DNA from: an uncultured Verrucomicrobiae bacterium | GTDB taxonomy: Bacteria > Verrucomicrobiota > Verrucomicrobiia > Limisphaerales > Palsa-1400 | Assembly (NCBI GenBank): GCA_963707025.1 | Contig: CAVPOM010000018.1 | Span: 96,001-160,000, forward strand | Length of the DNA stretch: 64,000 nt | Reading direction: 5' to 3' | Part shown: piece after piece, positions 20,176-60,842 of the stretch | How positions within the stretch are numbered: position 1 is the first letter of the stretch | How the letters are laid out: every line of letters begins with the position of its first letter | The notes under the pieces: generated by a model | The model's database searches: none | What the model saw: the letters and a program-made list of their open reading frames with translations, nothing else | Told to the model about the DNA's origin: nothing | Program-made: the position numbers and the translations under genes

Positions 20176-21270
20176 ACAGTACCTGTCCATAGCCCGGCAC
20201 GGCCATCAGATGTGACCCCGGATTATGCCCCTTCCCAAGAGAAGGACGAGATCGTGGTTTTCCAGTTGCCCGCCGATTCACCGACGGTGACAACCGAGGG
20301 AGTGCGCCGCATCGAAGCAGGTGGCGAATGAATCCAAAAACGGCAATTGAAGCAACCGCAGAGCACGCAAAGAGCGCAGAGAAAGAAACGTCAAGCGAGG
20401 CGCACCCCATATTTTGGTTCTATTTGATTGATGTGCGTCACGTAAAAACAATGCCAAAACCAAAACGAACCAAACTATGGGTTGAGCCCTTTTCCATATA
20501 TGTCAGAGAACGTCAGTTCTAATGTGCTTTTTCACTTTACTACGTCCATGAGGAATCTGAAACGCATTCTCCGACACGGATTTTACCCTCGCTATTGCCC
20601 CGAATACACCCTCGACCCGGATGACCGAAGAGCCGCCGCCGCCGGGCTTTCGCCATTGCGTGCCGCCCCGATGGTGTGCTTCTGTGACTTGCCCCTGTCG
20701 TTAATTAACAAGCACCTTGCCGAATACGGCAATTTTGGAATTGGCGTTGACAAGGATTGGGGGCGCGAAAACGGCGCGGCGCCTGTCATTTACACACATC
20801 AAAATGCCCGGACTCTCCGGAGCATATCAGACCTTTCCTCCGAGGCATCCGAACTCACTACTTCGACGGCACGCAATCGCAGATCGCTTTTGCCTGCTTA
20901 TACAAAGCCTGTTACTGGGGCCGCATGGAGAAATAATAAGGTGGCCCCGAACGTGCGTTTTTATGATGAAAGAGAATGGCGATATGTACCGGACCTTCGC
21001 GAAGCCGGTTCAATATTCTTGCCTCGGTCTGATTATTGTAACATGTCAAAAATAAAAGCGCTTCATAAACGTCTCGCGTCGCGATATGCACTGCGCGTTC
21101 ACCCAGACTATATTAGCTATTTGATATTGCCAGATTTGTCCTCGATTTTTGCAGCTGACTCTATCAGGGATTTATCCTTACTCGTAACCGCGTGAGCTGG
21201 ACCCCTATTTTTAGACCACAGGTAAGTTTCGATTTTTGCCGGTTTGCTGTAGATAAGAAAGAGCAGACTT

Positions 21271-21561
21271 ATGAAAGCAAAACGGAAAAGACACAGTGCG
21301 GCCTTCAAGGCCAAAGTGGGATTCGAAGCCCTGGTGGGGCTGAAGACGGTCGCGCAATTGGCGCGAGAGTATGCGGTGCATCCGGCGCAGGTCACGCAGT
21401 GGCGGGCGACGATTCGGGATCACATGCCCGAATTGTTTGAGCCCGGGCAACCCCGCACGGAGGATCAGGAACAGTTGATTGCCCAACTGCATGAGAAGAT
21501 TGGCCAACTGACGGTGGACTTGGACTGGCTTAAAAAAAAGTCCAGGCAACTGGGGCTTTAA
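21271..21561 (+). CDS. IS3 transposase OrfA
   Basis: RKRHSAAFKAKV HTH, KIGQLTVDLDWLKKKS; A8G slippery site at 21532-21540. Confidence 0.92.
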   Translation: MKAKRKRHSAAFKAKVGFEALVGLKTVAQLAREYAVHPAQVTQWRATIRDHMPELFEPGQPRTEDQEQLIAQLHEKIGQLTVDLDWLKKKSRQLGL

Positions 21562-21593
21562 CATGTTTAATCGCTCCCGATCCGCAGCTCAGC

Positions 21594-22448
21594 GTGCGGC
21601 GCCAGTGCGAGCTGCTGGCGGTGTGCCGTGGCAGTTATTATTACCAGTGCTGTCCGGAGACAGAGGAGAACCTGGCGCTGATGCGGCGGTTGGACCAGAT
21701 GCATTTGGACCACCCGGTTTATGGCAGCCGCAAACTGACCGTGCTGTTGCGCCGGGAGGGTTTGACCATCAATCGCAAACGGGTGGTGCGGCTGCTGCGG
21801 TTGATGGGGATCGAGGCGATTTACGCCAAGCCCAAGACGAGTCTGCGGGAGATGGGGCACCAGATTTATCCGTATCTGTTACGCAATTTGGCAGTGACGG
21901 GACCGGATCAGGTTTGGTGTTCGGACATTACGTATGTGCCTATGGCAACTGGGTTTATGTATTTGGTGGCGGTGATGGATTGGTGGAGTCGTTACGTGCT
22001 GGGATGGCGCTTGAGCAACACGTTGGAGGCGGACTTTTGTGTGGACGCTTGGGAGGCGGCGTTGCGGGCGGGGCGTCAGGCGCCGTTGATTTCCAATACC
22101 GACCAGGGATCGCAGTTCACCTCCCCGATGTTTATCGATGCGGTGGAATCGGCGGGGGTGGACGTGAGCATGGACGGACGGGGTCGCTGGATGGACAACC
22201 GGTTTATCGAGCGGCTGTGGCGGAGCGCCAAGTATGAGGACATTTATTTGCAAGACTATGGCGACGGGTTGGCGGCAGGGCGCGGACTGGGCCGGTGGTT
22301 TGACGGCTACAACCGGGAACGACCGCACCAGGCGTTGGGCTATGCGACGCCGGCGGACGCGTATTTTGATCCCGGCACGCATGGAGCCCAACCGGCCAAA
22401 TGGGAAGCGATGCAACCTGCCAGAGGCAGGAGCGATCGCAGCACTTGA
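21594..22448 (+). CDS. IS3 transposase OrfB (DDE), -1 frame open back to the slippery site
   Basis: YGSRK, VWCSDITY, NTDQGSQFTS, DNRFIERLWRS. Confidence 0.93.
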   Translation: MRRQCELLAVCRGSYYYQCCPETEENLALMRRLDQMHLDHPVYGSRKLTVLLRREGLTINRKRVVRLLRLMGIEAIYAKPKTSLREMGHQIYPYLLRNLAVTGPDQVWCSDITYVPMATGFMYLVAVMDWWSRYVLGWRLSNTLEADFCVDAWEAALRAGRQAPLISNTDQGSQFTSPMFIDAVESAGVDVSMDGRGRWMDNRFIERLWRSAKYEDIYLQDYGDGLAAGRGLGRWFDGYNRERPHQALGYATPADAYFDPGTHGAQPAKWEAMQPARGRSDRST

Positions 22449-23114
22449 CAGAGAGGCAGGCGGCAGGAAAAGGCTTGAAATCAGACCGCCTGCGGCGGTA
22501 GAGTTGAGAACCCTAAGAAAACGGAGAGGGAGGACGGGCAGTGCTCCGCATCGCTCGTTCTCTCTTTTCGAAAGGGTTTTGAAACACGGAATGAACAGTA
22601 GTCAACTACAATTAGTAATGACAGCAATCGGCAAAAGTCGCGCTTATTTCATGCGCTCCGTGGTCTAAAGGATGGGGTCCACCTCAGCACTCACGAAACA
22701 GTCAGATCCATTGTCCGTATTTCTCTGGAACGCATTTCCCGCTCATGACAAAGAAGTTCTTACGCGGTTTCACCCTTCGGCACCAAACGCCAATCGCACT
22801 AAAGAGGCTATTTTGCGAACTCTTAATGAGGTAATTGGAAAATGGCGCCTCTACGACCGTGCTCGATTCAAAGGTATCTCGCTGCGGCGCGAAACGAGGA
22901 GGCTTTTGGAGAAGGAAGAGGCAGCCGCCACCTTGCCTCGGCTCAATCGCCTCCTCCTTGAAGACGCGTATCCATCGGCATTCTGCCGGGACCTTGACGA
23001 GGAGAGGAATATTCTCGAACTGGCACAGTTCATTCAACGGCGTTATAAGCGCCTGCGAGATAAGATCTTAGTATCAACTACGATCATGACGATTGATTGC
23101 ATACACGAGGATGT

Positions 23115-23744
23115 TTGAGCACATGCCACAAAGATAAGGACAGTCCCAAGTCCTTACGAGACCCTTTGGTTAATGAGGAGAGACGTTGGGGTCTCCGGGA
23201 GCCGCATGTCGCTCAGCTTACCGCGTTTGTCGAGAAGCTACGGCGTCGCACTGGCTACGGCGATTTGATCCCGTATTTCGATCCTTTCGACGGTGGTACG
23301 CGCGCACTGTGTTTGTTTCTATTTGAGGCTCCTGGCCCGAAAGCTGTAGAAAGCGGCTTTATCTCGCGAAACAATCCGGACGAAACTGCGAGGAACTTCT
23401 TCATCCTCAATGAGGAAGTTAGGCTGGCCCGTTCCCTCACCGTTTCCTGGAATATCGTGCCCTGGTATGTGGGGTCGGGTTCGCGTATTACGCCGGCGAC
23501 CACTGAGGACGTTATCCGCGGCGTCTCGCATCTAGTTCAGCTGATAAGGATGCTGCCTCACCTCCGGGCTGTCGTCTTGGCTGGAAGAAAGGCCGAGCGA
23601 GCGAAGGGCTTCCTGGAAAAGAATTTTCCACCCATTCGTCTTTTCACGATGCCGCACCCTAGTCCTCAATTTGTTGACAGAAATCGTAGCAACCGGCGAA
23701 AAATAGTGAAAGTCCTGCGTCAGATCACAAACTATCTCACGTAG
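23115..23744 (+). CDS. Uracil-DNA glycosylase superfamily protein
   Basis: LFEAPGP, WNIVPW, VVLAGRKA, PHPSP motifs; TTG start overlaps the AbiGi stop. Confidence 0.8.
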   Translation: MSTCHKDKDSPKSLRDPLVNEERRWGLREPHVAQLTAFVEKLRRRTGYGDLIPYFDPFDGGTRALCLFLFEAPGPKAVESGFISRNNPDETARNFFILNEEVRLARSLTVSWNIVPWYVGSGSRITPATTEDVIRGVSHLVQLIRMLPHLRAVVLAGRKAERAKGFLEKNFPPIRLFTMPHPSPQFVDRNRSNRRKIVKVLRQITNYLT

Positions 23745-57929: not shown

Positions 57930-60842
57930 GTGCGGCTGCGCTTTCCAAAGATCCCGACTTTGCCCAAACTGGCGGACTTGCCCAAACTTCCTTCCGATCT
58001 GCTCAGTTACAAGGAATGGGATGCAATGCTGAGGGATTGGGAAAGGCTGCTGCCGGGCGGAGGGTCGCCGCAGCAGAGGAAACTGCCGATGGTGCTCATT
58101 ACGGCAGCGGTGGTGACGGTGGTTTGCCTGCTCCAGATCGGCCAGATGGCCGCCTTGCAGAAAGTGGAGGACATGACTTATGACTGGCGGGTCAAGCTGG
58201 CGGGCCGCCTGGCCGGCCCCCATCCCAATGCGGCGACCAATCTGGGCCTGGTGGAAATCACCGATGACACGGTGGACATCGTCAGTGGCGGAACGCTGGG
58301 ATACAGTTCGGGATTGTTGTGGCCGCGCAGCGTTTACGCCAGGGCCTTGCAGGAACTTTCCCTGCAAGGGGCCGGGATGGCGGGGTTTGACGTTGATTTT
58401 AGTTTAAGGCGGCCGGGCGATCCGCCGGTGATCATGGACGGGCGGACAATCGGATCGGACGAATTCTTCGCCGAGACGCTGAAAAGAGCGGGCAACGCCA
58501 TCCTGGCCATGGCGCACAATGTGGCCCCGGCGCAGCTTTTCCAGCAGAGCGCGTCGGACCTGGGCAATATCAATGCCGAACGGGATGAGGACGGGGTATT
58601 GCGACGCGACCGGCCTTATGAAATATACCGGATCTGGGATCCGTTATTTGTCAAACAAATCGCTTTGGAGTGGCATTTGGACCTGGAGGATGTGAAGATC
58701 CAGTTCGACTCCCAGGCGTTCGAGGCGGGGGATATCACCGATTTGCCATCCTTTGCCGCCAAACTGGCCGGCCAGCCCGATGCCGTCTCCAAGTTCTTGA
58801 GGAGGCGGCTGGATAAGGCCACGACCGGGGCGTTGCTGCAATATCAAGGCTCCGGGACGGCGTCGAATGATTTGGCGGGGGGGCTGATCCAGGCGCTGAA
58901 TAAAATCGTGGCCGGCCCCTCCATTTACGAGGATGGCCGTTTTGCGGCAGTGAAGCTGCGCCCGGAAACCCTGCGGCTTTTTGACCGGGATTATGAGGAT
59001 GGCGGAGTGGCCCGGCTCAACCGCTTGCTCCTGGAAGACGCCTATCCGCTGGAATTGGCGAGGAACGAGGCGGCCGCAATCGTTATCGCAACCAAACGGA
59101 AAGACCCGCCCACGGTCACTTATCACCGCGACAAGGACGGCTTTGTGCCCATGTCGGAGATCACAAGCAATGCGCCCGCCAATCAGCCGCTCTTTATCCC
59201 GTTCACCTATACGCGGGTGTGGAGCATGGGAATCGTCCTGGCCGCCAGCGAGTTGAAACTGGACCTGGACAGCCCGGAAATCCAACGCCGGCAGCACCGG
59301 GTGGTTTTGCACGGGGACAAGGGTGTCACCCGGGTGATCCCGTTGGAATCGGACGGCAGCTACTATATAAACTGGGAACTGGGCCGCTCCAACACCCTGA
59401 GCCAGATCACCCGGGTGACAACCAATCATCCGGGTGCAACCAATCAGGTTGTCCTCACCAATCAAATTGTGCTCCGGCCCGGTTTTCAAGCCGGGTCGTT
59501 TGAGGAATTGTTGCTGGAAGCCAAGGCGCGGGCCGAGGGCCAGGCGGTGGACACCGGGCGGTGGAAGAACCGGCTGGTCGTAATCGGCTCGGCCGTGACG
59601 GCGTTCTCCGCGGTGGCGGACCAGGGGAACACGGCGTTGGAAAGCGGGACCAGCCTGGTGCTCAAACATTTGAATGTGGCCAATGCCATGCTGACCAATC
59701 GTTTTGTCACGACCAGTCCGCTGGCGCTGAAATTACTCATGATCCTGGTGATGGGCGTCATTGCCGGGTGGATCACCTCGGCGGTGTCCCGTCCGCTGAC
59801 CGGCACGGCCCTGATGGCCGCGGTGGTGGCGGTTTACGTGGGGCTAGCCTGCTGGCTTTATACCCGGCACCGGTTTTGGCTGCCGGTGATTCTGCCGCTG
59901 GGCTGTTCGGGCCTGGTCACCCACGCCATGGCGCTGACTTACCGGGTGCAGGCCGAGCAGGCGGAGAAGAAGCGGGTGAAGTCGGTTTTTTCCAAGATGC
60001 TGGCGCCGGAGGTGGTGGATGAATTGTTGAAAGCGGCCAAAATTTCCACGGGCGGGGTGCGCCGGGAGATCACGGTTTATTTTGCCGACGTGCGGGGATT
60101 CACGACGCTGACCGACAGAACCCAAACCCAGGCGGTGGAGTACGTCAAGCAACACAAGCTCACCCCGGAACAGGCCGAGGCCTATCACAACCGGGTGGCC
60201 AGGGAAATCCTGGATACGGTGAGCACTTACCTGGGGACCATCGCCGGGGCGATCAAGAAACACCACGGCACGCTGGACAAATACATTGGCGATTGCGCCA
60301 TGGCCTTCTGGGGCGGGCCGCTGCCCAATCCGCGCCATGCCGGCGATGCCGTGCGGTCGGCCATTGACGCGCAGCGGGCCATGCTGGATCTGAACCTGAA
60401 ACGGGACGCCGAGAACAAGAGGATCGCCCGGGATAGCGCGGCCCGCGCCGCGCAGGGATTGCCGCCGGAATCGCCCCTGCCGCTCCTGGCCATGGGCACC
60501 GGGATCAATACGGGGGTGGCGATCATGGGAATGATGGGATCGGATGCCGACGGGCTTAATTACACCGTGTTTGGACGGGAAGTGAACCTGGCCTCCCGGC
60601 TGGAGACCCTGTCGGGTTACGGCAGAATCATCATCTCGCACGCGACCTATCTGGCCTTGCAGCGGGACGACCCCGAGCTGGCGGCGCGGTGCGTGGAACG
60701 GCTGCCGGAGAATCTCAAGGGGTTCCGCGAGGCTGTCAGAAATTACGAAGTGCTCTGGAGGCCGGAGGGCGGGCCGGAGGATCCAACGCAGCAGCAGATG
60801 CCGACGATGTATGGCAGCGGCACAGGCACGTTTTTGCGCTAG
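57930..60842 (+). CDS. CHASE2-domain class III adenylate/guanylate cyclase with a 118-aa insert (58710-59063)
   Basis: WPRSVYA, GFDVDF, DEDGVLRR, LVVIGS, 3 TM, FADVRGFT, DKYIGDCAMAFWG, VNLASRLE; start uncertain. Confidence 0.92.
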   Translation: MRLRFPKIPTLPKLADLPKLPSDLLSYKEWDAMLRDWERLLPGGGSPQQRKLPMVLITAAVVTVVCLLQIGQMAALQKVEDMTYDWRVKLAGRLAGPHPNAATNLGLVEITDDTVDIVSGGTLGYSSGLLWPRSVYARALQELSLQGAGMAGFDVDFSLRRPGDPPVIMDGRTIGSDEFFAETLKRAGNAILAMAHNVAPAQLFQQSASDLGNINAERDEDGVLRRDRPYEIYRIWDPLFVKQIALEWHLDLEDVKIQFDSQAFEAGDITDLPSFAAKLAGQPDAVSKFLRRRLDKATTGALLQYQGSGTASNDLAGGLIQALNKIVAGPSIYEDGRFAAVKLRPETLRLFDRDYEDGGVARLNRLLLEDAYPLELARNEAAAIVIATKRKDPPTVTYHRDKDGFVPMSEITSNAPANQPLFIPFTYTRVWSMGIVLAASELKLDLDSPEIQRRQHRVVLHGDKGVTRVIPLESDGSYYINWELGRSNTLSQITRVTTNHPGATNQVVLTNQIVLRPGFQAGSFEELLLEAKARAEGQAVDTGRWKNRLVVIGSAVTAFSAVADQGNTALESGTSLVLKHLNVANAMLTNRFVTTSPLALKLLMILVMGVIAGWITSAVSRPLTGTALMAAVVAVYVGLACWLYTRHRFWLPVILPLGCSGLVTHAMALTYRVQAEQAEKKRVKSVFSKMLAPEVVDELLKAAKISTGGVRREITVYFADVRGFTTLTDRTQTQAVEYVKQHKLTPEQAEAYHNRVAREILDTVSTYLGTIAGAIKKHHGTLDKYIGDCAMAFWGGPLPNPRHAGDAVRSAIDAQRAMLDLNLKRDAENKRIARDSAARAAQGLPPESPLPLLAMGTGINTGVAIMGMMGSDADGLNYTVFGREVNLASRLETLSGYGRIIISHATYLALQRDDPELAARCVERLPENLKGFREAVRNYEVLWRPEGGPEDPTQQQMPTMYGSGTGTFLR

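Follow-up and report, generated by a model that had tools for sequence, protein, structure and literature searches.

Why do two unrelated proteins, encoded about 37 kb apart, carry the same domain in frame when that domain belongs to no named family? The question is raised by a 64,000-nucleotide stretch of DNA from an uncultured Verrucomicrobiae bacterium (GenBank assembly GCA_963707025.1, contig CAVPOM010000018.1, positions 96,001 to 160,000 of the forward strand), which is referred to here, in its full length, as the window. The first protein is a CHASE2 sensor with a class III nucleotidyl cyclase domain, and the second is a member of the AbiGi family. An initial annotation, made from the sequence alone, regarded the shared 118-residue module as a candidate mobile protein domain. 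Our comparisons demonstrate that the module is encoded by a widespread, uncatalogued cassette of about 360 bp, which entered many unrelated genes in frame as a discrete unit of about 120-123 codons. Its landing sites are usually loops, often within another domain, and the genes it occupies differ between closely related species. Because the carrier genes differ in this way, the module behaves like mobile protein-coding DNA.

The cyclase and AbiGi copies align without gaps, with 39 of 118 residues identical (6/18 in the first AbiGi piece and 33/100 in the second), which reproduces exactly the count in the initial annotation. BLASTP aligned the longer AbiGi piece with the cyclase copy at 33/101 identical residues, no gaps, and an E-value of 3e-16, while the 18-residue piece alone gave no significant BLASTP match to it. 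The 12-mer RLNRLLLEDAYP is identical in both copies. Its coding DNA has six differences in 36 bases, every one of them synonymous, as had been stated, and the stated distance of the hosts and their different base composition (G+C of 0.61 for the cyclase and 0.50 for the AbiGi pieces) also hold. The placement inside CHASE2 is borne out, as Pfam matches this domain in two stretches (E 1.6e-23, 84.1 bits, cut-off 26.3); the Guanylate_cyc domain of the same protein scores 60.6 bits (cut-off 21.9). The second copy does lie inside the AbiGi gene, as claimed, but after the end of the Pfam AbiGi domain (E 3.8e-31, 109 bits, cut-off 22.4, residues 34-216). This protein reaches only 45 bits against the NCBIfam AbiGI equivalog, whose cut-off is 300, and is therefore a member of the AbiGi family rather than the equivalog.

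Insert-free homologues exist for both window hosts, so both copies are true internal insertions. We refer to the window's own 6.96-Mb genome as G000 and to the other genomes of its genus as G001-G005. The cyclase orthologues of G001, G003, and G005 contain the module. Those of G002, G016, G008, and G012 lack it, and in the alignment their host sequence is continuous through the site; the insert-free cyclase orthologues in other genera are open reading frames (ORFs) of 771-813 residues. Comparison with the insert-free orthologues places the inserted block of the cyclase at about 58716-59075, and the envelope of the profile match is 58704-59072. For the AbiGi gene, a single further homologue was found among 151 genomes of the order. 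It has 252 residues, is 49% identical, and carries no module. The 39 residues that follow the module in the window protein align to the C-terminal tail of this homologue, so the module is internal even though it is 3' of the Pfam domain.

We then inspected how many other proteins contain the module. When the cyclase copy served as query in a word-indexed search, 91 longer proteins matched it with about 100% query coverage and 40-50% identity in unrelated hosts. A first profile, built from word-indexed-search matches to the cyclase copy, was run on G000 and located 14 copies across 11 host ORFs; every copy follows the reading frame of a long ORF. Pfam identifies the hosts as two TMEM260-like glycosyltransferase paralogues, a P-type ATPase, YidC, two multihaem cytochrome ORFs, a GH95 glycosidase, a TIGR03663-like membrane protein, the cyclase, and the AbiGi gene, together with a BSP-type peptidase, in which two copies flank the HEXXH helix, and TssG, which has two divergent copies. 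The G000 copies are 18-47% identical in protein sequence to the first copy. An apparent diverged copy in an MFS gene on contig 9 of G000 proved to be a module-free paralogue. The 14 copies were aligned (alignment A1), and the A1 profile was run over 1.84 billion representatives; 4787 clusters match it at E<=1e-3, and 2799 clusters do so at E<=1e-10.

The boundaries of the module are constant. Copies cover profile positions of about 2-118, and most matches have a near-complete profile span. Among 324 full-length copies, 291 are internal to the host protein. The number of copies per protein, counted in 232 proteins, is one in 97 and two to seven in 135. The module cuts the Pfam profiles CHASE2, E1-E2_ATPase, and T6SS_TssG in two and is thus nested inside other domains. 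Other hosts include MFS, MscS, PTS EIIC, DNA methylases, and c-type cytochromes, and a Pfam scan of 75 new matches adds LptE, Wza-type exporters, MurJ, PTR2, A24 prepilin peptidase, ABC permease, P-II, ECF sigma factors, RNA ligase, and SIR2_2, among others. Between non-homologous hosts the median identity of the module is 34%. Free-standing forms are rare, with 10 matches in a search limited to 67-216 residues. Eight short proteins were inspected (six of these 10 and two from the profile search), and three of the eight are fragments of DUF1080-type proteins; for the most part, the short matches inspected are pieces of larger host proteins. Hence, the spread into many host families and the constant boundaries that the initial annotation anticipated are both present, with copies in dozens of unrelated families.

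Several module-bearing proteins have unusual arrangements. In P0092, P0093, and P0099, near-identical units stand head to tail, the unit being the module or its C-terminal 80-105 residues; P0092 has, in addition, several repeats of the first helix by itself. Such arrays could be reservoirs or simply the result of local amplification. P0253 (146 residues) is a nearly free-standing copy with a similar short word, Asn-Trp-x-x-Pro-Pro-Gly, on both sides, which resembles a duplicated target. MscS-type channels of about 970-990 residues have the module at their extreme C terminus in records labelled Nitrospiraceae, Alphaproteobacteria, and Betaproteobacteria (L094, L113, and L154), and this architecture seems to travel as a whole. 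On contig 6 of G000 (718079-719768; L002 3079-4768), the two module-bearing multihaem cytochrome ORFs overlap. Together they match single two-module proteins of 456-465 residues in relatives (L050, P0097), so the G000 gene seems frameshifted or mis-assembled.

No catalogued family accounts for the module, in line with the initial annotation. Pfam gave no family for the 14 copies, with a single chance-level row at E 0.21; NCBIfam gave nothing relevant, PHROGs and PADLOC gave 0 families, and PDB sequences gave just a 25-residue stretch at E 0.004. A literature search found no description of the module within open-access PMC papers and bioRxiv preprints. An AlphaFold2 model on A1 has a mean pLDDT of 89.5, a pTM of 0.84, and six helices. 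It contains no strands of three or more residues, and the only bridge residues are 11 and 118, so the two ends of the module meet in the model, a geometry suited to insertion into a loop. From this model we predict with confidence a compact six-helix domain of about 120 residues with adjacent ends; the initial annotation had proposed a helical module whose termini are adjacent. Foldseek on PDB and BFVD returned nothing at E<=0.001, and the best Z in an exhaustive VIA structure search was 4.2 among 48161 chains; neither result is proof of a new fold. In the ESM Atlas the best score was 0.87, which yields sub-threshold leads only, and no cluster with a Pfam family appeared.

Comparison within the genus reveals which sites are occupied in which species. 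Identities of YidC and the ATPase give the topology ((G000,G003,G001),G005),(G002,G004), on which the presence and absence of the cyclase module imply that it was gained once, in an ancestor shared by four of the six species. The predicted empty sites were found as insert-free orthologues not only for the two window hosts but also for at least six other sites. In G000 YidC the module occupies residues 133-252. In the YidC proteins of G001, G002, G003, and G005, which are 67-86% identical, the two halves abut and the site holds no module, nor does it in other genera (30 of 31 genomes have a YidC match). The YidC of G004 carries a module at a different site. The module in a 4Fe-4S protein of G004 is an insert of exactly 123 codons, and the G000 site is empty with flanks 87-90% identical; an MFS transporter of G004 also carries the module where the G000 site is empty with the right flank 93% identical. 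In a PTR2 transporter, a 123-codon module is present in G003 and G005 and the G000 site is empty. Three further sites have the module in congeners and are empty in G000. The clean cases among these sites differ by exactly 123 codons. As dS between G000 and G003 is 0.19-0.59 in seven genes, these differences in presence and absence are recent events. Separately, the YidC of G003 (L009) has its own 70-residue insert near the N terminus, which is not the module and is absent in the other aligned YidC genes.

These patterns could in principle arise in reverse, if the module were ancestral at all sites and the differences between species were repeated precise deletions rather than gains. The PTR2 site is most simply read as loss or allele replacement in G000, and copies at different sites are just about 34% identical at the median, both of which would suit old residence. 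Against deletion stands YidC, where the G000 copy is absent from other YidC loci and the G004 site is different, so that many independent exact losses would be needed. The youngest copies are also the lowest in GC3 (G+C at third codon positions) relative to their hosts and the nearest to the family consensus. Specifically, four copies with an empty orthologous site are 57-63% identical to the consensus, compared with a median of 47%. Outside the window's order, the module occurs in only 3 of 150 sampled genomes of the phylum. We hold ancestral residence at all these sites to be improbable.

The distribution is densest around the window's own genus. The module is present in 28 of 31 relatives in the window's order. 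Genomes of the genus have 7-14 matches each, those of the family's other genera 1-8, and those from outside the family 0-3; the 3 of 150 in the rest of the phylum were scored at E<=1e-12. A scan for the word RLNRLLLED, with one genome per species, confirmed 154 of 180 stretches, and 80 loci were kept. By bin labels, which may be wrong, most of these 80 loci belong to Verrucomicrobiota, and the others to Acidobacteriota lineages, Nitrospirota, Alpha- and Betaproteobacteria, two cyanobacteria, a Chloroflexota order, and one archaeon.

The coding sequence of the module is maintained as protein. The host frame (+1) is the only frame that is stop-free in all 14 G000 copies, and the five other frames have stops in most of them. 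In the conserved 12-mer, third codon positions vary and first and second positions are nearly fixed. Purifying selection acts on resident copies, which evolve about as fast as their hosts; omega in seven G000-G003 orthologue pairs is 0.24-0.51 for the modules and 0.14-0.46 for the hosts. Among cyclase orthologues, the module is 57-82% identical and the rest of CHASE2 53-80%. Selection as strong as on the hosts, and a length and fold conserved even in old copies, are what would be seen if the module were an ordinary uncatalogued functional domain, for example one for binding, docking, or regulation, which had been recruited repeatedly by rare illegitimate recombination and kept in each host for the same useful property, without dedicated mobility.

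Composition and codon usage carry traces of how the copies arrived. Of 120 non-redundant copies, 87 have a lower GC3 than the host ORF (mean -0.04, Wilcoxon p 5e-8). The largest deficits, -0.18 and -0.22, belong to the two YidC insertions, and those of old copies are about zero. In 21 pairs of copies that sit at different sites and have empty orthologous sites, identical residues are encoded by the same codon in 52% of cases versus 31% in a control, which takes the same residue at other columns within the pair. When every non-orthologous pair in the genus is taken, the values are 47% versus 35%, and the loci that the RLNRLLLED scan found in other genomes give 36% versus 31%. We read the codon sharing as residual shared DNA ancestry, that is, propagation within the lineage; six-fold degenerate codon families may be the source of part of the excess.

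It is on solid ground that the module forms a discrete cassette which lies in frame, has been gained repeatedly, is read in the frame of its host, and is held under selection. On its nature, we lean by a modest degree of confidence to a mobile, largely passenger-like in-frame cassette. This reading is favoured because the insert length is constant and free-standing forms are nearly absent, and because the hosts lie on both sides of the membrane, young copies have a GC3 deficit, and occupancy turns over within the genus. Several observations are awkward for a recruited functional domain. Free-standing forms are rare. The hosts are both cytoplasmic (TssG, AbiGi, sigma factors, methylases, integrase) and periplasmic, so that a single partner is difficult to envisage; domains of many kinds would be expected from random recombination, yet one module with a constant length of about 123 codons recurs; and recent insertions show the GC3 deficit typical of incoming DNA. 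We therefore favour the mobile cassette over conventional recruitment, which we hold to be possible but rather unlikely.

If the module is a mobile cassette, it would be translated and retained in the mature protein as a looped-out domain. It would spread as DNA and be mobilised in trans, perhaps with a short target duplication. Selection would keep it folding well chiefly because misfolding of the insert would disable the protein that carries it. The cassette would then be a near-neutral or selfish passenger, possibly put to use in some hosts.

A number of observations weigh against such a cassette. First, the Asn and Arg of the LNR motif are polar and nearly invariant, from which a shared function is possible, and polytopic membrane hosts with four or more hydrophobic segments make up 62 of 241 hosts compared with 273 of 3644 long G000 ORFs, a 3.4-fold excess. 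Both could reflect shared function rather than mere tolerance. Near-invariant polar residues and the enrichment of membrane and envelope proteins among the hosts accordingly count for the functional domain, as do the tandem arrays in some proteins, architectures that stay the same from phylum to phylum, such as MscS with the copy at its C terminus in records labelled Nitrospirota, Alphaproteobacteria, and Betaproteobacteria, and the finding of no mobility enzyme or DNA end signal. Second, G003 and the outlying G005, which branches outside G000 and G003, both have the PTR2 copy and G000 does not, so a precise loss or an allele replacement in G000 is required. Third, no near-identical donor of the recently gained G000 YidC copy was found; its best match within the genus is 57% identical, and a word-indexed search of a 5.8-billion-protein collection gave one of 58%. 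Fourth, none of the matches in 31 genomes lies outside a long ORF, and one has a stop codon.

The DNA ends of the copies add to these points. Terminal inverted repeats in eight young copies score 5-12, which is within shuffles (maxima 10-15), and nucleic-acid folding shows no excess, with a mean z of -0.58 for the module and -0.61 for the host coding flanks (n=14). A preference for AGG at the last Arg, considered as a DNA signal, is explained by Lys/Arg interchange. The evidence for target duplication is only suggestive. The 8-nt exact repeat CGCGCCGG occurs on both sides of the 4Fe-4S insert of G004 and once in the empty site, and imperfect 9-nt repeats are found at two sites, Leu-Asn-Ser flanking the YidC insert of G000 and (Thr)-Gly-Tyr in the YidC of G004. 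Across the family, a shared flank word of at least three residues occurs in 23 of 353 copies where 7.3 are expected, a modest excess; at the DNA level, shared flank repeats number 12 of 107 (6.6 expected). As to vectors, tblastn found no match in 50,697 phage or 72,556 plasmid records from cultured sources, and IMG/VR yielded three viral loci out of 20 candidate stretches. Two palindromes that occur in a few young copies, TCCGCGGA and TCCAGGA, were rejected as general end signals, being present in 2/44 and 4/45 cases in the genus and in 0/48 and 2/53 elsewhere.

A co-occurring recombinase or reverse transcriptase, which the initial annotation had raised as a possible companion, could not be tied to the module. 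G000 contains sixteen near-identical RVT_1 reverse-transcriptase ORFs of 538-593 residues (e.g. contig 6, 589898-590545), which are probably an active group II intron, and one further RVT_1+GIIM ORF of 350 residues beside an S24/HTH repressor and a methylase (L172). Nothing links any of these ORFs to the module. Ten Y1 transposase matches were also found in G000. Y1_Tnp could likewise not be tied to the module: it is in all 31 relatives, module-free genomes included, and its count correlates only weakly with that of the module (rho 0.30, p 0.10, over 31 relatives that are kin and not independent).

We then compared the module with inteins. It resembles them in being inserted in frame in conserved, often essential proteins and in being sporadic among close relatives, and it might thus be a self-excising element, either a new kind of intein at the protein level or an intron at the mRNA level, so that the hosts would never carry it. 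An intein has Cys, Ser, or Thr as its first residue and His-Asn plus a nucleophile at its C-terminal junction, and its Hint fold is mainly beta. The module block starts with small-residue linkers before a Phe and ends in ...ELSR(N/D/S), and the next residues differ between copies. Hence its junction residues vary, with neither a first-position Cys/Ser/Thr nor a terminal His-Asn plus nucleophile, which agrees with the lack of intein motifs noted at the outset, and the predicted fold is all-helical rather than Hint. An intron is opposed by purifying selection at the protein level over the whole length, by Rfam, where nothing reached the gathering score (one chance-level row, 18.3 bits vs 50), and by RNA folding that is no better than in the flanks. 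We regard self-excision as very improbable, more so than ancestral residence.

Three known kinds of coding insert were also considered. Rickettsia palindromic elements (RPEs) and other intragenic MITEs are short repeats that lie in frame in many unrelated genes and add a tolerated conserved peptide (PMC10969869), and the module likewise lies in frame in many unrelated genes. RPEs are about 150 bp, palindromic, and placed in one genus, whereas the module is about 360 bp with no inverted ends or excess folding and occurs in several phyla by record titles. Unlike RPEs or MITEs, module copies are 18-47% identical within G000 and none is outside an ORF; unlike RPEs, the module is conserved at the protein level and its product is predicted to be an autonomous fold. 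PARCELs are coding repeats with patchy horizontal spread that moved within genomes, often in membrane-targeted proteins (PMC2996958). Their units are 25-residue tandem repeats with DNA dyad symmetry in ORFs of unknown function, in contrast to the module, a single 120-residue domain in known, often essential proteins. The ShiLan-type insert of a phage DNA methylase is described as in-frame, stop-free, homing-like, and neither intein nor intron (PMC11855218). It hides an HNH endonuclease encoded in a different frame (PMC11855218), whereas the conserved product of the module is in frame and no second frame is open in all 14 copies.

The module shares with ordinary nested domains an autonomous fold with adjacent N and C termini, inserted in a loop of a parent domain. 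It differs from them in that the same module occurs in dozens of unrelated families, forms clean indels within a genus, and is almost never alone. By the preceding comparisons, the module lacks defining features of RPE/MITE, PARCEL, ShiLan-type insert, intein, and intron. Tentatively, and with less confidence than we place in its mobility, it may represent a new class, namely a translated non-autonomous mobile element of about 360 bp with a self-folding, looped-out product, which is copied in frame between genes and phyla, leaves a short target duplication, and is precisely reversible. Such an element would be a domain-level transposon that reshapes essential proteins.

If the mobile reading is true, domain gain in prokaryotes would not depend solely on rare gene fusions, and proteins such as YidC, P-type ATPases, LptE, and MurJ could gain a 13-kDa appendage within the time of congeneric divergence. 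Since none of the searched domain libraries contains this family of thousands of members, annotation reads them as unexplained insertions or low-quality regions. The natural insertion points mark loops that tolerate a whole domain, and the module itself is a natural insertion-tolerant scaffold, both of which are useful for protein engineering. The missing near-identical donor poses a concrete problem of how the cassette moves.

The features of the two host genes in the window are collected in Table 1.

Table 1. Host genes, module copies, and associated features in the window (positions are those of the window)
Feature	Position	Strand	Basis
Host gene 1, CHASE2 sensor/class III nucleotidyl cyclase, 990 residues	57870..60842	+	ORF and Pfam
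First CHASE2 stretch, residues 83-292, profile positions 5-148 of 257	58116..58745	+	Pfam; ends at module start
Module copy of the cyclase, residues 281-398	58710-59063	+	Profile match, E 1.9e-47
Catalytic domain Guanylate_cyc of the cyclase, residues 733-958	60066..60743	+	Pfam
Host gene 2, 5' part, AbiGi-family protein, broken after codon 237	20482..21192	+	ORF; Pfam AbiGi
Module copy of the AbiGi gene, first 18 codons	21139..21192	+	6/18 identical in register to the cyclase copy
Insertion sequence breaking the AbiGi gene inside the module; not part of the module itself	21193..22686	+	Inverted ends, transposase ORFs
Module copy of the AbiGi gene, other 100 codons	22690..22989	+	Profile match, E 3.3e-31
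C-terminal tail of the AbiGi-family protein, 3' of the module	22990..23118	+	Aligns to residues 214-252 of the insert-free 252-residue homologue (G151)

The insertion sequence has 27-nt inverted ends that are 81% complementary and is flanked by the triplets GCG and GCA. Its two ORFs (21271-21561 and 21594-22448) match HTH_Tnp_1 and rve/rve_3/HTH_21, and from this gene layout we take it to belong to the IS3 family. The AbiGi gene resumes in frame at 22690. With an insertion sequence inside its module, the AbiGi defence gene is thus a pseudogene. An ORF at 23097-23744 overlaps the end of this gene and matches the UDG (uracil-DNA-glycosylase) superfamily at E 1.4e-5. It is no AbiGii-like partner and may instead be a second component of another type in the AbiGi defence locus. 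In the cyclase, CHASE2 contains a second, unrelated insertion of about 28 residues rich in Thr, Asn, Gln, and Val (residues ~515-545, ~59410-59500). This insertion is present in G000 and G003 and absent in G002, G016, G008, and G012.

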